Virus record (IMG/VR): IMGVR_UViG_3300044724_000968
Location: 1-33,494 of that record
Length of the DNA: 33,494 nt
Direction: 5' to 3' (one strand)
Source: a virus
Taxonomy: Duplodnaviria; Caudoviricetes
The position numbers and the translations under genes were made by a program. Positions 13,983 to 33,126 of the stretch are shown one piece after another (within the stretch, counting starts at the first letter, position 1; the number at the start of each line of letters is the position of its first letter). The notes below the pieces were generated by a model. The model worked only from the letters and a program-made list of their open reading frames with translations, made no database searches and had not been told where the DNA came from.

Positions 13983-16900
13983 ATGGGTATCTTTCAATAT
14001 ACTGATCCGCAAACCCGACGAAGCTATGACTTTGAAATTGCAGGTGATGACCCTAGTAACGAAGATTATGCTAAAATACGTCAATATTTAGACGGTGAAC
14101 GTGCTGAATACGCGCAGCGTTACCAAAATGTATTCGGTAAAGAGTTTGAAGTAGACGATGAAACAGCCGTGCGCCGTGGGCTTCGCCGTGGATATCAGCA
14201 GATTAAAGGTGCGGTTGGCGAAACACTTGGGACTGCTGGTGAGGAGGCGGGGCTTGGGTTTCTTGCAGAATACGGACAGGACGTAGAAGAGAGATCACGA
14301 CAGCGGCTAGGGGAACTACTACTTGAACAACCCGAACGTATGCAGTCAACTGACGTAGATAGTATTGGCTCTGCGTTGACGTATGCAGGAGAACTTGTTG
14401 GTGAGCAAATCCCGCAGCTTGGCCTTGGTCTTGGCGCAGCAATAGCAGCCCCTGTCATAGCAGGCACAACAGGCTTATCCGCAGTTGGTTTAGGGATAGC
14501 CGCAGGTGGCGTAGCCACAGCTCCAATTTTGTTTGGTAACAACATCCAGCGCCGCGAAGATGTTGTAGGTGAAGGCAATCTAACCGAAACTGACATATAC
14601 AACGCTCTAAAAGCCACATTCGGACAAGCAGCGCTTGAAGGTATATCCTCTAAAGTGTTGGCAGGTGGTCTATTCCGTCCGCTAGGCAAGTCTATATTTA
14701 CTCGCACAGCGAGCCGTGCGACAGGCGGTGCGACCACTGAAGGTTTAACTGAAGTCGGTCAACAAATGATGGAGCGAGCGCAAGCTGGCCTCCCAATCGA
14801 CAGCGAAGATGCTATTGCAGAATACCGTGAAGCAGCTATCGCAGGTGGTCTAATCGGTGGCGGCACACGCGCTACATTCGGTGCGTTCCAAGGTGTACCC
14901 GAAACTGAAGCAGAAAAGAAAGCTAGGCTTGAAGCAGAAGCAGACGTAGACGCAGAAGCCACTGCAGTTACCACAGAAGTAGAAACAGAAGCCGCTGCAG
15001 TCACCACAGACACAGATATAGGCACTGACCCTACGGACGTTACTCAACCAGAAGCGGATAAAGTCGAAGAAACTATAGCTGCGGCTGAAGAAATCACAAC
15101 CGTTACGGACGCTCAAGCTACAGAAGCAAGAAATGCTGCTGACTCTACACCACCCAAAGGCAAAGCAGAACAAACCGATACGCAGCGAGCGGTAGCCGCA
15201 GCCGATGTAGATACAAGTACAGATAAACAAACGGCGATTGCTAAAGAAGCAAGGTTAAAACAAGAAGAAGCATTAAGAAAAACTGAGAAATATATTAAAC
15301 CTGCCGTAGACCCCAACGCAGTAGCGGAAGATCGTGACGCTGCACTAAAAAGTGAGCAAAGCGGTGAGAATATACAGGTAGGGGTTAGAGAAGAAGTAGA
15401 AGTAGACGCTGTAACAACTGACTCTAATGTAATAGATGACGACTTCTTGTCAGGTCTAAGTGTACCGAAAGAGGCGTTGATTAGACGTAAAAACACAAAG
15501 ATAAGCTTAATCGGCAAAAAGAAAAACGATCCTGCGGTCATTGAAGCGTTAAAAAAATACGCGCTTACAAGTTCCGTATCAGCAGCCAAACAAGGCGTAA
15601 CTGATTATCTTAGTTCTGTAGGAGTATCTCTTGAAAGAAAATCTGACACAGAAAGACTTGGAGTTGGCGTTCCAAGTGATCAACCAAGCGTGGTTGGAGG
15701 ACTCGGACGAGACAGTACAGATACCGAGGTCGTTGCGGAAGCTGACGTGGGAAGACTGGGAACTGATCTGCCACCTGCTAGAGATACTGCAGATACAACA
15801 GGAATCGAGTCCGATACATTAGAAGATGTGGATTTTGTTACAGCACGGGGGTCTACTTACTCTATCAAAGAAGGCAACCGCACTAAACGAAATCGCGCCT
15901 CTAATACAAAAAGTGGTGAGTTCGTAGAACAGCCTACTAGCGGCAAAACAATTTATATGTCTTACGAAGATATGAATAAGTTTGGTTCGTTATTTCAACA
16001 AGGCGAGCTAGGACTGTATAAATTTCTTCCGATAGAAGGTACTACAAACGAAGCCCAGTTAGTTTACACTCAAGACTATGGACCATTTAAAGCCGGAGAT
16101 CCTGTATCGGATACACAGGTAACTTTTTCCACTACCCCAGAAGTAGGTAAACACCCCGTTGAGATTTATGACTCAACAAACAAAACTGGCAATGATATCC
16201 ACTTTGGCTCTAAAATAACAAAAGTAAATTCTACTAAACCTAAAACTGCAGCAGCGTTAGAAGAATTAAAACAGCAAGCTGATATTGCTACAGCCGAACC
16301 AGTAGCGCCTGCTCCTCAACCTGCTACACCTGCCATGCAGCAAGCAGCAATCGGTGGTGCCGAAACAGGACTTGCGGGACAAGTAATTCCTGAACCTGTA
16401 CAAGTACCCGCTGCACCGCCAATGCAAGCCGCGCCTGTTCCACAAGAACAGTTACAGGCTATGGAAGCGCAACAAGACGCTGCTGCACAAGCACGTATTG
16501 ACAGGGTGTTTGAGAGCAATCGGGGTAAGCAGCCACAGGTCCGAGAGTATCACGATACACAAGTAGACCCACGCTCTGCACCAGAAGTCACGACTGCGGT
16601 GGACAAAGAGGGTGTTGCAGACTTACTAGAAACCCCCGACAAAGATCTTGATACACGGGCTAAAGCGGCAAAACTTTTCTTCAAGCGGTTCCGCAGACCT
16701 GTTGATGCCCTCGCCGAAATGGGCGCAGTTAGTGCTGCTGGACCTGCACAGTCTATTGAAAAAGACTATACTCCGGTTGAGTTTGCTTTCTACAAAGGCA
16801 TGACCCAAAAGTCAGCTATGGATGCGCGGAAGTGGGTGTTTGATAATCTGTCTCGTCAAGCTTTTGTAGAAACACGCGATGCAAGTGTTCTTGCACGTCG

Positions 16901-19900
16901 AGACACAGCAAAATACAGCCCATCTGATGCGTATATCCGTGCAACTAAGTCAATCAAACAAGTCCTAAATAACGAGCAAAGAAGATATAATAGGCAGCTT
17001 GAAAAAGATGTAGAAGCGTACACAGAAGCAAAACGCGCAGAAGCCGCAGCGGAGCAGGTGAATAAACAGCTTGCACTAGATACTTCTATGGATGCGCCTC
17101 GACCTATGGTTACGCAGGCGGGAGAAGAACTTTTCCGTGTAACTACACCTAAAAAAGGTGAGACAGCATTCGATTCTTACTTGCTTAGTATGGGCTTTAA
17201 GAAACGCAAAGTACCTAAACAAGACGATTATGTATTTATAGATCCTGACACCAAAAAAGCTCTAACTGATGAAGAGCTTATGGACTTCTACGATGGTTGG
17301 GTTGCGTCCCGCGAAATGGGCTTCTTGCTTATTGACCCCGTGCATGGGCTAGACCAAGCGTTGCTTCCAAGCATCCGTAACGCGCTACAACGTGGGGATT
17401 TAGGTTTTGCGTTGGACGCTATAGCTTCAACAAGTCAAGTGGACCGCATTCGTGAAATTGCAGCCAAGCTTGCCAATGTTGTCGGCGATACACAGGTACA
17501 GGTAGTTGATGACCTATCCGCAATGACAGGGCGAAAAGCCGCTGGATTTTTTAGACCTCAAACAAATACAATTTTCATTGATGCTAACAACGGGATGAAC
17601 GTGCATACTATTCTGCACGAGATGACCCACGCAGCTACCTCGGCATCATTGGCGAACCCATCTCTACCAGAAGTAAAGCAGCTACAGGCTATACTTAAAA
17701 ATATGCGAGAGCAATTAGGTGAGGTGTATGGCACAGCAGACTTGGACGAGTTTGTTGCAGAAGCCTTCAGTAACCCTGAGTTCCAAAGAGCATTAGCTCT
17801 TGCCCCGGTAGATGGTGGTAAGATGTCAGGCTGGGAGAAGTTTACAGGTGCTGTAAAACGTATCGTCCGGAAGCTACTAGGTTTGTCACCTTCGCCGACT
17901 GCACTATCAGAAATAGATAGATTGATCGACGGTATGCTGGCCCCATCACCAGCCACACGCGCAGCGCCAAACATGTTGTTAGCAGCAGGTACACGAAAAG
18001 GTGCAGCAGATTTGTTGGGTACATATTTTACTGCTGTACCGAAAGAAGACAGAAATAGCTACGAGCGGATAAGGGATGTTGTTCTTGCTAACACCCCAAG
18101 GTCAGTTAAAAATTTTGCTCTTTCTTTGCAGCCCGTAACTAACTTAACTCGTATCGCTAAAGAACGTATTCCTTTTGCCCCAGAACTAAACGTATTAATT
18201 GACCAAGCGTCAGGAGCGTACCGAAAAGCTTTAGAGCCTGTCGATGTAATATACGAAGATTATAGAAAATTCCGTAAGGCAAACCGCGCCGCATACGATA
18301 AAATGCTTGGGTTAATGAACCGCGCAACCCAAGAAGAAGTTGATCCCGCACGTCCAAGAGATACGTACGCACAATACTGGTTATCTTATTTCGATAAGAA
18401 AACTGAAAAAACAGTGACCCGTGCATTTAAAAACGAACAAGCGCGTAATGCAGAAATAGCAAAATTAAACGCCGATTTAAAAGCTGATGAAGACGCAGGC
18501 AAAACACTAACTCGTACTAAAGCTAAAAAAGCTGGTGATGCTAATGCAGACAAAACGGCAATGTGGGATGTCCTAAATAAAGAATACAAGGCTTTAGGTA
18601 AGCAAGGGCAAGACCTGTATAAAATTACCCGCAATATGGGTGAGAGTGCTATGGACCGTATTCTTCCAGCTATGAAAGCACGTATAGACGCTATGGGGGT
18701 AGACAGCGCGACAAAACGAACAGCATTCGAAAAGCTTGCGGACCTACTCCATGCTGAAAGTGGTGTTATTCGTCCATACTTTAGGCTAAATCGTGATGGG
18801 GACTTCCGTCTACAATACGTTGCTCCTGATCCTCTTACAGGTAACGATGAAGTTTTCACTGAGCGGTACGACTCCGAAAGAAAATTACTACAAGCGCAAG
18901 AGAATGTTAATAAGTTTTTAAAACGTATAGAACGAGAAGACTTGGTTTCGCAGATAGAATCAGGTAGGGACAGCGGCGTACGGAATTACGGCAAAGCTCC
19001 TAGCTCTTCGTTTGTGTTTAACCTATTACAAACGCTACAAGCTACAGGCGTAGATCAAAAAACAATGGATCGGGTTGTTGATCTTGCTTTAGACGCTATT
19101 CCAGAGCGTTCATTTATGCAGTCGTTCCGTAGTCGTAAAGAACGCGCATCCGGTGGACGGGGTGTATTCGGTGCGCTTGGTGAGGTTACTCCGTCAGGTA
19201 TGCCCGGAATGGATGCTGACCCTGCAGAATTATTTCGAACAAATTTTCGTGGTATAGAGAAACAACTCGTACAGTTAGAGTATGGCGCAAAAATACAGCA
19301 GTTCCGTAATAAGTTAGAAGATGGGAACTATTTAAATCGCCTTGATACGGATGTAATGGCTAGAAAACTAGATAAAATAGCCGAATTTGCGCAGTCTCCA
19401 TCTATGCCAAACTGGTCGCGGATAGCTACATCTGCAGGGTTTGGGTGGACTATGGGCGCGAACATATCTTCTGCGGCTGTTACCTTATTTGATATGCCCA
19501 TGAGTGTATTCCCATATCTAAGCGGGGAATACGGCATAATGAAAACAACAAGTGCTATAAGTAATGGTGCTAAGTTATTTTTAGGGTCGCCCGAAACTAA
19601 GACAGTAACCATCATGGGCGCAGATGGGCAACCTGTTCAGCGTGAAGTGAAGATGAGTAAGTTTGGTAAGTCTATGGCTAACTATAACTACGACGATCCT
19701 AACTTGCCTAACGACATAAAAAGATATGAACCTCTCGTAAAACTTGGCACCCCACGTGGATTTTTTAACCAAAGTATGACCCAAGAACAGTTAGATATAA
19801 CTGGGGACCGTGATGTTTTAGAGAAAATAAATGTAGTAAGTAGTTTCTTATTTCACCACACAGAAAGAATGGGGCGTGAAACCTCTCTAATTGCCGCATA

Positions 19901-20993
19901 CGATTTAGAGTTAAATAAACTAAGTGACAACGGAAGAAAAAGAATCACAGAACAAGACGAGCGAGCCGCAGCAGAAAAAGCACTCGATTCTGTGGAGCTT
20001 ACGCTCGGAGGCACCGCCGCTGCTGGTAGACCAGTATTTGCACAAAATCCAGTCGGTAATGTGGTTTTCTTGTTTAAACGGTTTGCGGTGCAACGCTACT
20101 ACTACATGGCTCACCTGCTTGATCAGGCGTTGTCAGGAGCAGACCCAGAAACTCGCAGTATTGCTAAGAAACAACTAGCACAAGTCTTTATAATGTCAGG
20201 GATACTGGCTGGCGTAGGCGGTATGCCACTGATGGGCGCAATCGGCGCAATCTATAACATATTTACCGATGATGACGAAGATGATTTTGATGCCATGATG
20301 CGTAAGACTATACCGGGGGGTATGTATGACGGATTTGCAAACGAAATACTCGGTGTTGACGTGGCAAGTCGTGTCTCTATGAACAGCTTACTTTATCGCC
20401 CACCTATCGTAGAAAAAGATCAGTTTCCTCTTTGGACACTCGCAGAGCAAATAGGTGGCCCTGTCGTTGGATCAGTACAGAGTATATGGCGTGGCTACAA
20501 GTTGGTAGGAGAAGGTGAGTATCTACGCGGCGCAGAAGCCGCATTACCTGCAGCGGCAAGGAATCTTATTAGGGCGTATAGATTTGGAACAGAAGGCGCG
20601 ACAACCTTACGTGATGACCCAATCGTAAAAGACATTAACCCATACAATACGTTTATGCAGGGTCTAGGGTTCGCACCTGCAGATTATATCGAAAACCTAG
20701 AGAAGAACAGAAACGAGCGCAGTAAGAAAAACTTTATAGATCAAAAACGCCGTAAACTTATGAGGCGGTACAATATGGCTAGAAGAAACAACGACAACGA
20801 AGGCGTACAAAAAGCACTGCGTAAAATACAGGAGTTTAACGCCAACCTACCTTCAAACTACCGTGTAGAAAGTCGTATTGACCGTGAAGATCTTAGAAAA
20901 TCATATAAAGGGTTTACGCGCACTACGGGTAACATGGTAAATGGTGTTGTATATACAGACGCCATGCGTAAGAGTTACGAAGAGTATAAATAA
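13983..20993 (+). CDS. Giant internal virion / polyvalent protein with zincin metallopeptidase-like domain
   Basis: 2336-aa uninterrupted ORF with an N-terminal Gly/Ala hydrophobic region. HEMTH...DEFVAEAFSNPEFQ lies at about 17616-17785, followed by a PLxRFG-like YFRLNRDGDF and a helical C-terminal region. Confidence 0.75.
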   Translation: MGIFQYTDPQTRRSYDFEIAGDDPSNEDYAKIRQYLDGERAEYAQRYQNVFGKEFEVDDETAVRRGLRRGYQQIKGAVGETLGTAGEEAGLGFLAEYGQDVEERSRQRLGELLLEQPERMQSTDVDSIGSALTYAGELVGEQIPQLGLGLGAAIAAPVIAGTTGLSAVGLGIAAGGVATAPILFGNNIQRREDVVGEGNLTETDIYNALKATFGQAALEGISSKVLAGGLFRPLGKSIFTRTASRATGGATTEGLTEVGQQMMERAQAGLPIDSEDAIAEYREAAIAGGLIGGGTRATFGAFQGVPETEAEKKARLEAEADVDAEATAVTTEVETEAAAVTTDTDIGTDPTDVTQPEADKVEETIAAAEEITTVTDAQATEARNAADSTPPKGKAEQTDTQRAVAAADVDTSTDKQTAIAKEARLKQEEALRKTEKYIKPAVDPNAVAEDRDAALKSEQSGENIQVGVREEVEVDAVTTDSNVIDDDFLSGLSVPKEALIRRKNTKISLIGKKKNDPAVIEALKKYALTSSVSAAKQGVTDYLSSVGVSLERKSDTERLGVGVPSDQPSVVGGLGRDSTDTEVVAEADVGRLGTDLPPARDTADTTGIESDTLEDVDFVTARGSTYSIKEGNRTKRNRASNTKSGEFVEQPTSGKTIYMSYEDMNKFGSLFQQGELGLYKFLPIEGTTNEAQLVYTQDYGPFKAGDPVSDTQVTFSTTPEVGKHPVEIYDSTNKTGNDIHFGSKITKVNSTKPKTAAALEELKQQADIATAEPVAPAPQPATPAMQQAAIGGAETGLAGQVIPEPVQVPAAPPMQAAPVPQEQLQAMEAQQDAAAQARIDRVFESNRGKQPQVREYHDTQVDPRSAPEVTTAVDKEGVADLLETPDKDLDTRAKAAKLFFKRFRRPVDALAEMGAVSAAGPAQSIEKDYTPVEFAFYKGMTQKSAMDARKWVFDNLSRQAFVETRDASVLARRDTAKYSPSDAYIRATKSIKQVLNNEQRRYNRQLEKDVEAYTEAKRAEAAAEQVNKQLALDTSMDAPRPMVTQAGEELFRVTTPKKGETAFDSYLLSMGFKKRKVPKQDDYVFIDPDTKKALTDEELMDFYDGWVASREMGFLLIDPVHGLDQALLPSIRNALQRGDLGFALDAIASTSQVDRIREIAAKLANVVGDTQVQVVDDLSAMTGRKAAGFFRPQTNTIFIDANNGMNVHTILHEMTHAATSASLANPSLPEVKQLQAILKNMREQLGEVYGTADLDEFVAEAFSNPEFQRALALAPVDGGKMSGWEKFTGAVKRIVRKLLGLSPSPTALSEIDRLIDGMLAPSPATRAAPNMLLAAGTRKGAADLLGTYFTAVPKEDRNSYERIRDVVLANTPRSVKNFALSLQPVTNLTRIAKERIPFAPELNVLIDQASGAYRKALEPVDVIYEDYRKFRKANRAAYDKMLGLMNRATQEEVDPARPRDTYAQYWLSYFDKKTEKTVTRAFKNEQARNAEIAKLNADLKADEDAGKTLTRTKAKKAGDANADKTAMWDVLNKEYKALGKQGQDLYKITRNMGESAMDRILPAMKARIDAMGVDSATKRTAFEKLADLLHAESGVIRPYFRLNRDGDFRLQYVAPDPLTGNDEVFTERYDSERKLLQAQENVNKFLKRIEREDLVSQIESGRDSGVRNYGKAPSSSFVFNLLQTLQATGVDQKTMDRVVDLALDAIPERSFMQSFRSRKERASGGRGVFGALGEVTPSGMPGMDADPAELFRTNFRGIEKQLVQLEYGAKIQQFRNKLEDGNYLNRLDTDVMARKLDKIAEFAQSPSMPNWSRIATSAGFGWTMGANISSAAVTLFDMPMSVFPYLSGEYGIMKTTSAISNGAKLFLGSPETKTVTIMGADGQPVQREVKMSKFGKSMANYNYDDPNLPNDIKRYEPLVKLGTPRGFFNQSMTQEQLDITGDRDVLEKINVVSSFLFHHTERMGRETSLIAAYDLELNKLSDNGRKRITEQDERAAAEKALDSVELTLGGTAAAGRPVFAQNPVGNVVFLFKRFAVQRYYYMAHLLDQALSGADPETRSIAKKQLAQVFIMSGILAGVGGMPLMGAIGAIYNIFTDDDEDDFDAMMRKTIPGGMYDGFANEILGVDVASRVSMNSLLYRPPIVEKDQFPLWTLAEQIGGPVVGSVQSIWRGYKLVGEGEYLRGAEAALPAAARNLIRAYRFGTEGATTLRDDPIVKDINPYNTFMQGLGFAPADYIENLEKNRNERSKKNFIDQKRRKLMRRYNMARRNNDNEGVQKALRKIQEFNANLPSNYRVESRIDREDLRKSYKGFTRTTGNMVNGVVYTDAMRKSYEEYK
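15631..15822 (+). CDS. Candidate nested, overprinted 63-aa protein inside the giant gene
   Basis: AGGAG (15620-15624) lies 6 nt before the TTG. The product is an amphipathic helical sequence, while the host frame here is low-complexity. Confidence 0.45.
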   Translation: MKENLTQKDLELAFQVINQAWLEDSDETVQIPRSLRKLTWEDWELICHLLEILQIQQESSPIH

Positions 20994-30901: not shown

Positions 30902-31399
30902 TCAAGCTGCATCTTCGTCGTCTATGCCGCGCAACGCATGAACGAGTTGTTCCATCGGTGTAACGTCATGCCCTACATGTTCGACACAGCCCCGATACCT
31001 AGCCAACCACGCAGCCAAAGCCTGTGCAGCTTGCAGTCGCAACTCTTGTTGCGAAGCTTCACTTGAAGGATCAAAAGGGATGTACCCGCCCCCATGCTTT
31101 CTGTCTTTCATGGGACTAATGTAAGCTGGGTAATCAGCTACTTTGATACGCACCTTAACATCTTTCACTGTCTCATGTTTAACAGTGATGCGAAGTCCGC
31201 GAATAAGTCCCGCAATCCGATCCTTCTCATACTCTTCGATCTTTTTGTCATCGGAAGCACCGAAGACGTAATCGTAAAATTCGTGATCTGGTTTTTGTTT
31301 TAGCCATTCACGTATTTGCGCGACATCAAGAGTATTCCTACCTGTTTCTGCCGCGTATTCATTTATAAGCCGCTGCTTATCGCTCTTCTTGAAGTTCAT
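30902..31399 (-). CDS. Uncharacterised protein directly downstream of the pentamer array (candidate accessory protein)
   Basis: 165 aa with a GGAG RBS. Motif KPDHEFYDYVF..SDD....YEKDRIAGLIRGLRITV...PAYISP...GGGY. Confidence 0.75.
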   Translation of the reverse strand: MNFKKSDKQRLINEYAAETGRNTLDVAQIREWLKQKPDHEFYDYVFGASDDKKIEEYEKDRIAGLIRGLRITVKHETVKDVKVRIKVADYPAYISPMKDRKHGGGYIPFDPSSEASQQELRLQAAQALAAWLARYRGCVEHVGHDVTPMEQLVHALRGIDDEDAA

Positions 31400-31426: not shown

Positions 31427-32257
31427 AAACCAAGCCGGACCATACCGTTTATGCGCCCCAACTCGCCGAACCCGTCCAAACCGGACCGTTCCCCGACCGC
31501 CGTAACTCTCCATGCCCAAACATATCTTACCGGACCCCGACCGCCTTAACATACCGCGACAAACCGCGACAGACCTAACCGGATCTCGCCCCGACCGCCA
31601 TGCCGAAAAACACCAAAACTTAACGGGCCGAACCGCACCATGACCGCCGTACCGAGACCCAACATGCCTGACTTACCACACCAAAGCGCACCGAAACACG
31701 ACCGCCGTAACTGACCGAACCACGCGAAACCAGAACAAACCTGACCGCACCGCACCTCGACCGCCCTACCATGCCCCACCGTGACTCAACTCGTCCCGAC
31801 ACGCCTTGCCTTGACCGCCCTACCATGCCCCACCGTGACTCAACTCGTCGCGACGCGCCTTGCCTTGACCGCCCTGACTGACCGTGATCAAACTGAACGG
31901 GCCATACCTAGACCGCCACGCCAAAAAACACCAAAACTTAACTCGCCGAACCAGAACTCACCTTGCCTAGACCGCCAGACCTTGACCAGCCGAACCCTAT
32001 ACGACCCAACCGAACCGCGACCGACATGCCGTGACCCAACTGATCATACCCCGCCCTAACAGACCTTACCTTGCCTTGACCGACACGCCGTAACCCAACT
32101 GACCTAACCCCGTCGAACCAAACCTTGCCTTGACCGACTTGCCTGACCGCAACCCACCTGACCGCTACGTGCCTCTCCACACCGCGCCTCGACCGACATA
32201 CCGAACCAAAACTCAACATAACCGACCGTAACTTACCCCGCCTCGACCGCCTTGACC
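31427..32257 (-). ncRNA. Non-coding G(G/T)Y-NN pentamer array of 15 units (putative guide RNA array)
   Basis: The delimiter GACCG(C/A)C (+ strand) starts at 31495, 31539, 31593, 31642, 31700, 31759, 31813, 31867, 31911, 31970, 32019, 32078, 32132, 32191 and 32245. Spacings are 44, 54, 49, 58, 59, 54, 54, 44, 59, 49, 59, 54, 59 and 54. Between delimiters a conserved triplet alternates with a variable dinucleotide. The repeat structure is directly seen; expression as RNA is inferred. Confidence 0.85.
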
Positions 32258-32268
32258 AAAAGGGGGAA

Positions 32269-32284
32269 GGGGCATTGCTGCCCC
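32269..32284 (-). promoter_or_regulatory. GNRA-tetraloop hairpin between the RAMP gene and the array (leader, processing site or attenuator)
   Basis: On the - strand it reads GGGGCA-GCAA-TGCCCC, followed by TTCCCCCTTTT and then the first array unit. Confidence 0.65.
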
Positions 32285-32289
32285 AACCT

Positions 32290-33126
32290 TTATTCTGCTG
32301 CAATGTCCTGTATATCCGCATCGAAGCGACGACCCATCTCTGACTTGACATATTCTACCAAGTCCGCTGTAACATCGTCGGCATACTCAGGATTATCCAT
32401 CGCTGCCTGTTGGACATCACGCCCCTCAAGCATCAACTCATCCCAAACTTTTTGTGGTGAACTGCCGTCTGGCATAAAGTCTGTCCAATCATCTCCGCTA
32501 TCGGATGTACCAACAACAAATGTGCCATAAGACCCACGGCCTTTCTCTTGCCGAAAATCACCGATACCAATGATTGCACCCGCATTGCTGAGTAGTGATA
32601 CAATACCATAGGCGCTGAGTGTTGGTTGAACATAGGCAATATCAACCTCTGCGCACCAACGCGGTAGATAACAACGCGTCCGTATGTCTGGCGTACGTTT
32701 AATATCTGCGGTGCGAACTATGTCAGTCTTTAACTGCGGCTTACCCCATATCTGAATGTGGGTTTGCGGCATAAAGATCAGACGTTGCACAGACGCCTTG
32801 GACACATTTTCTGTCTCAAGTGCTGCTGTAGCCATAGCAGCTTTGACCCCCGGAGCGGGGAAACATAGTAGTGTTTCTCCAAACTCCTTTTTGTATGCGG
32901 AGTCATAGAACTCTCTTATGGGATCATGTTTCATCCCTGTTAGCTGCTTCTTACCTTTGACCTTTTCTTTCGGTGCAGCAAGATCGCGCATTGTTTTGAC
33001 GCTCATGCTGTTGAAGTAAAGAGGTGTTGTACCAACCATCCGTAAACGGACACGACCCTTCTTGAACTGACTAATTTTAAGTGTTTGTTCTGAAGGTTCT
33101 ACGGTTTCTTTTTGCTTGAAAGCCAT
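32290..33126 (-). CDS. Stand-alone RAMP-superfamily (Cas7/Csm3-like) RNA-binding protein
   Basis: The first strand RLRMVGTTPLYF, the segment FPAPGVKAAM (cf. IPGSSLKGAL) and the C-terminal Gly-rich loop GIGDFRQEKGRGSYGTF occur in RAMP order. The gene is adjacent to the array. Confidence 0.75.
   Translation of the reverse strand: MAFKQKETVEPSEQTLKISQFKKGRVRLRMVGTTPLYFNSMSVKTMRDLAAPKEKVKGKKQLTGMKHDPIREFYDSAYKKEFGETLLCFPAPGVKAAMATAALETENVSKASVQRLIFMPQTHIQIWGKPQLKTDIVRTADIKRTPDIRTRCYLPRWCAEVDIAYVQPTLSAYGIVSLLSNAGAIIGIGDFRQEKGRGSYGTFVVGTSDSGDDWTDFMPDGSSPQKVWDELMLEGRDVQQAAMDNPEYADDVTADLVEYVKSEMGRRFDADIQDIAAE

Follow-up and report, generated by a model that had tools for sequence, protein, structure and literature searches.

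We found that a minus-strand array of short pentamer units in a marine-type phage record most probably encodes the guide RNAs of a phage-borne VIPR system, with each delimiter-bounded unit being one guide predicted to silence a gene of a rival phage (probability roughly 0.93). VIPR has been described as a CRISPR-related gene silencer with a GGY/NN code, a 1-nt skip and staggered arrays in which the guides overlap by 1 nt (10.64898/2026.04.26.720920). VIPR guides are built from alternating GGY/NN pentamers with 9–16 repeats. An earlier reading of the tract from the sequence only had suggested that its variable NN pairs carry spacer-like information. This was substantiated, since decoding with a one-base skip provided matches to genes of other phages.

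Genomic setting of the array

The window, i.e. the whole stretch of 33,494 nt that was analysed, is a 33.5-kb virus record that is approximately 55% complete. Tail and virion genes are found on its plus strand, and genes for polymerase A, an SNF2 helicase and primase-type proteins on its minus strand. The array takes up the intergenic stretch that separates a 278-aa ORF from a 165-aa ORF, with all three located on the minus strand (Table 1). No close cultured relative of the window phage was found, the best polymerase match being 36%. Scanning 19 window ORFs of this incomplete record revealed no Cas families. Two further features of the window concern other genes: 66-nt tandem repeats at 1730–2351 lie within an ORF (1532–2371) that is placed between tail-fibre genes and has no PHROG match, and a 2336-aa ORF (13983–20993) has a DarB-like match at its C-terminus and a short repeat near 14931–15010.

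Table 1. Positions of the array, its flanking genes and its individual guides in the window, with predicted targets.
Feature	Position	Strand	Description
vipr	32290..33126	-	stand-alone RAMP (Cas7/Csm3-like), 278 aa; phrog_4652, RAMP-like model
Leader	32252..32284	-	short GC-rich hairpin 32284-32269, then TTTGGTCAA immediately before first unit
Staggered vrRNA array	31427..32251	-	15 G(G/T)Y-NN pentamer units; 1-nt register slip at each G(G/T)CG/GTC
Guide 1	32198..32251	-	predicted target DnaB-like helicase gene of roseophage-type phages, 20/20
Guide 2	32139..32197	-	predicted target terminase large subunit of HK97-like phages, 20/22
Guide 3	32085..32138	-	predicted target a second site in the guide-1 helicase gene, best 19/20
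Guide 4	32026..32084	-	predicted target the guide-3 helicase site, best 20/22
Guide 7	31874..31917	-	predicted target a 114-aa gene beside endolysin, antisense strand, in L028, 16/16
Guides 8 and 9, near-duplicates	31766..31873	-	weak candidate, tail assembly chaperone gene, 19/20 each
58-nt unit	31649..31706	-	one internal 4-nt repeat
Guide 13	31546..31599	-	weak candidate, family A DNA polymerase gene, 18/20, one IMG/VR record, chance level
Last unit	31427..31501	-	nine regular pentamers, 6-nt repeat, four further pentamers
Accessory gene, vap-like	30902..31399	-	165 aa, mostly helical; homologue conserved in related loci

Many relatives carry a hairpin 5' of the array that is similar to that of the window leader but differs in sequence. 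Folding of the window leader gave z = -1.59, and z < -2 was obtained for 18 of 49 leaders. A consensus fold with RNAalifold returned no pairs for the leaders, probably due to misaligned stems of unequal length. The leader hairpin is terminator-like on the opposite strand only, and a promoter scan found none. Contigs from four RNA-library runs cover parts of vipr, the array and the partner gene; these are assembled sequences only, which may stem from DNA and carry no information on ends, strand or level.

Grammar and register of the array

The 15 delimiters of the form G(G/T)CGGTC lie on the minus strand at positions 32251, 32197, 32138, 32084, 32025, 31976, 31917, 31873, 31819, 31765, 31706, 31648, 31599, 31545 and 31501. 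The spacings between them are, in this order, 54, 59, 54, 59, 49, 59, 44, 54, 54, 59, 58, 49, 54 and 44 nt. The sequence-only reading had proposed units of 5n+4 nt, and 13 of the 14 spacings follow this rule, the remaining one being 58 nt; its parse of the stretch from 32251 to 32191 was exact on re-reading. Units hold 8–11 NN pairs plus the delimiter, the triplet is G(G/T)Y, and approximately 38% of the triplets have T instead of G at the second position.

The periodicity was quantified by autocorrelation, as had been proposed: at a lag of 5 nt a value of 0.429 was obtained compared to 0.300 ± 0.015 (maximum 0.356) for 1000 shuffled sequences. A flat entropy across the five phases had been named as a refutation, yet the 13 regular units provided 0.29, 1.23, 1.11, 1.92 and 1.96 bits, i.e. 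low-entropy triplets and near-random NN pairs. When the phase was not reset at the delimiters, the fixed-phase entropy became flat (1.83–1.90), in agreement with the idea that the delimiter breaks the 5-nt phase. Elsewhere in the window at most 6 motif pairs per 200 nt were found, compared to up to 32 in the array.

That the NN pairs differ in every unit does not hold: the similarity amounts to 95% between units 31873 and 31819 and to approximately 80% between units 32138 and 32084. The 58-nt spacing, which had been put down to a 1-nt deletion, was confirmed; because the same 58-nt unit also occurs in the related loci L001 and L002, it is not a sequencing error. In two other loci (L004, L005) a 58-nt guide has an internal 4-nt repeat that still spans one codon of a helicase target (18/20), which would fit a 1-nt loss within the guide better than a new boundary.

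The units follow one another directly, without an intervening tail, spacer or ribozyme, and are unstructured (z from -0.9 to +1.4). A coding origin of the array was ruled out by 5–13 stops per frame and stop-free stretches of at most 104 codons in the six frames. As for a known RNA family, Rfam gave only a sub-threshold snoRNA match (E 0.33). Among the pooled guides of L001–L080, GGT followed by GG is rare (10 cases), as is GGC followed by CA (5 cases). The triplet used depends on the NN that comes after it, by which false registers are perhaps avoided.

The 278-aa protein is a Vipr-family member

The 278-aa protein matches phrog_4652 with E 1.9e-12 over profile positions 6–189 of 194. The same family is matched with E 1.4e-96 by YP_009199429.1, which is named as the Vipr of the Escherichia phage SUSP1 in 10.64898/2026.10.15.759431. 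The only PDB sequence match of the 278-aa protein was this SUSP1 Vipr (36pp_D), a weak one with E 0.26 as a single sequence and E 0.0086 using a profile of 76 sequences. Aligning both with hhalign resulted in a probability of 91%, with weak direct likeness over 53 columns. A predicted model of the protein (pLDDT 75.6) provided 33 Foldseek matches with E <= 0.001, of which the top ones were all CRISPR RAMP complexes (Csm, Cmr and Cas7 chains); fold scores were middling (best VIA Z 8.8, rmsd 4.1, 163 aligned).

According to 10.64898/2026.04.26.720927, residues R138, D177, W178 and R179 of SUSP1 Vipr contact the GGY triplet. In pairwise and profile alignments they correspond to R151, D190, F191 and R192 of the 278-aa protein, which are invariant across 76 homologues; in the multiple alignment R138 is displaced by three residues from this placement. 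The region of the residues that clamp the non-target strand (K82, K88 and R39 in SUSP1) has no reliable alignment to the 278-aa protein. Homology was found for 1339 of 1770 candidates, and the cellular Vipr homologues are mostly from Alphaproteobacteria, several of them from Rhodobacteraceae. Judged from these alignments and the predicted model, the 278-aa protein is a Vipr-family member with a putative RAMP fold, in keeping with the RRM core, thumb and G-loop that characterise a stand-alone Vipr.

The partner gene

A homologue of the 165-aa partner was present in all 59 related loci that extend at least 1500 nt beyond vipr. Searching Pfam, PHROG and PDB with the 165-aa protein provided no match, and neither did a comparison of folds (best Z 4.8); no nuclease was matched, and its Atlas neighbours are unnamed. 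The missing family and fold match is no evidence for a new fold. Compared to Vap1, the accessory protein of SUSP1, hhalign gave 0.9%, a level at which remote homology may still exist.

Related loci and turnover of units

The family was surveyed in the best 80 of 365 related viral loci. In 78 of these a pentamer tract follows vipr on the same strand, the two exceptions having only 33 and 0 nt downstream. Among 563 delimiter spacings of at most 80 nt, which include the window and near-identical loci, 417 are 5n+4, 76 are 5n, 51 are 5n+3 and 19 other. Side by side with this layout, some of the loci L245, L254–L256, L259, L062–L064 and L066–L068 have the array after the partner gene or split around it, and several more distant relatives among them do not have this delimiter.

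For the target search, 402 units with a length of 5n+4 and at least 70% regular triplets were collected. They provided 277 distinct guides, to which the last unit of the window was added (278 in total). Irregular units were kept out of this set and scanned separately. The content of the units turns over even where Vipr is 99% identical: with the window, 2 of 9 regular units are shared by L001 and 7 of 8 by L005. Together with the skip-specific, wobble-phased matches described below, this turnover bears out the earlier statement that the tract is not a microsatellite.

The guides are predicted to be read with a one-base skip

The frequencies of the NN pairs resemble codon positions 1-2 of the window genes (r = 0.87), compared to r = 0.17 for positions 2-3 and -0.09 for positions 3-1. 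We searched the fetched loci with the guides, skipping 0, 1 or 2 target bases between successive NN pairs. A best match with E < 0.02 was obtained for 0, 15 and 0 of the 278 guides, respectively. With a shuffled order of the NN pairs the corresponding numbers were 0, 0 and 1. In an enlarged locus set they were 0, 28 and 0 (shuffled controls 1 and 0); as this set was assembled from earlier matches, the 28 of 278 is inflated and the result is circular for guides 32251 and 31501. For 25 of the 28 matches the target lies in a frame of at least 120 codons and the skip falls on codon position 3; they represent approximately 13 distinct sites. In 29 loci of cellular genomes, skip 0 provided 2 matches, which is within the chance range, and skip 1 none.

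Most of the strong targets are matched on the sense strand, and all are located within genes, not in promoters. Matches are seen on both strands, with guide 31917 and two frames of 1230 codons in antisense. Self-targeting was not found: the best self-match of the 14 guides in the window had E 0.41 or worse, and in the complete relative G015 the 13 guides reached at most 17/22. The delimiter was considered as a part of the target and rejected, with GG after the last NN in 2 of 15 matches and CG in none. With regard to the lack of a PAM in VIPR, the two bases 3' of the last NN are mixed over the 15 matches, which represent few independent sites. Neighbouring units match different sites or genomes, which argues that the delimiter is the predicted boundary between guides.

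Predicted targets of the individual guides

Of 14 window guides searched, five had good targets, four had candidates at chance level and five had none. The most extensive evidence comes from guide 1 (32251). Its 9-NN pattern has 36 exact matches in IMG/VR, 33 of them in one helicase family. The tenth NN, which was held out of the pattern, agrees in 33 of 33 helicase loci, while 9 of the 10 skipped positions vary among these helicases. The targeted protein is DnaB by PHROG and has 67% identity to the helicase of CRP-235 and 35% to that of HMO-2011. The Roseobacter phages CRP-235 and CRP-212 are called HMO-2011-type, which is an abundant marine group.

The same helicase gene is matched by guides 3 and 4 (32138 and 32084), although neither had served to fetch it. 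For guide 3 the agreement is 19/20 in 2 of the 33 loci and 15–16/20 in the other 31; for guide 4 it is 20/22 in one locus, 19/22 in one and 18/22 in 22. Variants of guide 2 (32197) occur in 12 related loci, and the variant of L006 fits a variant target exactly (20/20). The match of guide 7 (31917) has an E of about 0.002 in the local set and comes from a single locus of a phage that itself bears VIPR.

The candidate of guides 8 and 9 was found in two related IMG/VR records, near chance level; each of these guides is one base off the same site, which is intermediate between them. For the last unit (31501) a portal gene in antisense is a weak candidate, with 4 exact 9-NN matches of which 3 lie in one portal family, again at chance level. 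Guides 32025, 31976, 31765, 31648 and 31545 had no local match better than E 0.37, and guide 31765 had 0 matches in IMG/VR, which was covered by five exact-pattern scans. The irregular-unit scan provided no match for the 58-nt unit.

Matching the window guides to the first 50 kb each of the cultured phages CRP-235 and CRP-212 provided none with E < 0.005. In cultured CRP-212, guides of relatives match two genes, that of the helicase with 21/22 and that of ribonucleotide reductase with 19/20. No vipr was found in 5 helicase-bearing and 5 terminase-bearing target records, which are mostly fragments. The genes predicted as targets serve replication and packaging in phages that likely have a roseobacter-type host in common, and the host of the window phage itself is likely a roseobacter.

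Several observations were made on the guides of relatives. Those in the arrays of L013–L065 point to a common set of target groups, in which the genes for terminase, prohead protease, helicase and ribonucleotide reductase are matched. Two HK97-like, terminase-targeted records (L067:2068–5189 and L077:1–2669) have their own VIPR locus directly 3' of the terminase gene. A terminase guide of seven loci (L017, L019, L026, L038, L044, L045, L048) has an internal 6-nt repeat that fits if four target bases are spanned, as though three variable bases paired consecutively; with flanks of 20/20 in three variants of one lineage this is suggestive.

Proposed mechanism and alternative explanations

By analogy to SUSP1, one Vipr subunit would sit on each pentamer, forming a filament along the guide in which the triplet is buried. 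The NN pairs would read double-stranded DNA by gapped pairing, with two bases in every three being paired, and binding of the Vipr-guide complex would block transcription of the target. As the skip falls on the wobble position of the codon, a target phage would not escape by synonymous changes. The 1-nt slip at the delimiter may end one filament and start the next, such that no run-on into the next guide occurs.

The array RNA of the same VIPR system might alternatively stay uncut, as one long transcript with side-by-side Vipr filaments that are each ended by the slip. The abutting, unstructured units without tail, spacer or ribozyme and the lack of a substantial Rfam match are in agreement with this. 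Moreover, confirmation by sRNA-seq is listed for ribozyme arrays and single guides only and thus not for staggered arrays; the same paper, however, writes of 'individual processed vrRNAs' in the legend of its fig. S18 and reports short RNAs from all characterised VIPRs (10.64898/2026.04.26.720920). We consider an uncut transcript unlikely but worth serious attention. Far less probable is an activity beyond the blocking of transcription, with either Vipr or the 165-aa partner cleaving or degrading the target or working on RNA. The resemblance of Vipr to Csm3/Cmr4-type RAMPs and the mostly sense-strand matches within genes would suit such an activity, but the antisense matches and the missing nuclease match of the partner would not, and phage-type VIPRs repress, with predicted nucleases in types III and V only (10.64898/2026.04.26.720920).

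That the tract is a degenerate microsatellite, a replication origin or a protein-binding array devoid of guide function is hardly credible. Near-duplicate neighbouring units exist, and 9 of the 14 searched guides have no strong target. This explanation is nonetheless largely refuted already by the skip-1 statistics and the helicase matches of guide 1; the matches are wobble-phased and hit conserved genes in other phages, the array is strictly linked to the Vipr gene and its strand, and its units turn over between phages with 99% identical Vipr.

A more far-reaching and rather doubtful extension of the guide reading is that the clade possesses a fast-evolving, Cas1-free immune memory against abundant marine roseophages. 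Whole guides would be gained, lost, duplicated and retuned, with the GGCG/GTC slip as the joint at which guides are both separated and exchanged. This might take place on an unprocessed RNA holding several guides, aided by a 165-aa partner unlike Vap1. If true, guide acquisition by VIPR, which is left unexplained in the available text of the VIPR preprints, would become directly testable.

Comparison with known systems

The VIPR system and its staggered layout were already published (2026), and the locus adds a clean, target-mapped example. It provides sequence-based evidence that a delimiter-bounded unit would be a separate guide, for a type of array that has no sRNA-seq confirmation in the source paper. 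It would also widen the phage-versus-phage conflict of VIPR to include marine phages of Alphaproteobacteria, the guides being directed against conserved helicase and terminase motifs. The words marine, Roseo and Rhodobact are absent from the text of 10.64898/2026.04.26.720920, and a search of a limited literature set provided no paper linking VIPR to roseophages. As a compact, tail-less array of 15 guides the locus would lend itself to testing multiplexed targeting and guide acquisition. A total of 99 VIPR-like array clusters is reported in 10.64898/2026.10.21.760802.

Class 1 CRISPR-Cas, in which a Cas7/Csm3 backbone forms on the crRNA, shares with the locus the RAMP fold and a variable-guide array directed against viruses. 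It differs in having direct repeats with contiguous spacers and multiple cas genes, none of which are seen here; a contiguous (skip-0) reading of the array provided targets for 0 of 278 guides in the viral sets.

VIPR types I–VII are told apart by the phylogeny of Vipr and by the vap gene. The type II VIPR of SUSP1 (Vipr YP_009199429.1, PDB 36pp) has the same PHROG, code and wobble phasing, and the thumb arginine and the D-aromatic-R motif of the G-loop are conserved in the 278-aa protein. In contrast to the four separate vrRNAs with structured 3' tail of SUSP1, 15 abutting tail-less units are found here. SUSP1 Vipr has 195 aa compared to 278 aa including a C-terminal helical extension, its accessory protein Vap1 has no detectable likeness to the 165-aa partner, and it targets satellites while the targets predicted here are full phages.

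Closest are the published staggered VIPR arrays (10.64898/2026.04.26.720920, fig. S18 legend), compared by text and legend. Both they and the present locus have a Vipr RAMP gene with one accessory gene, GGY/NN pentamer guides, a one-base-skip code and targets in other phages, and the published 1-nt guide overlap equals the 5n+4 spacing observed here. A difference is that the triplet is often GTY here, while several GGY substitutions abolish silencing by SUSP1 (10.64898/2026.04.26.720920). Overall, the locus is likely a VIPR system with the published staggered array layout.
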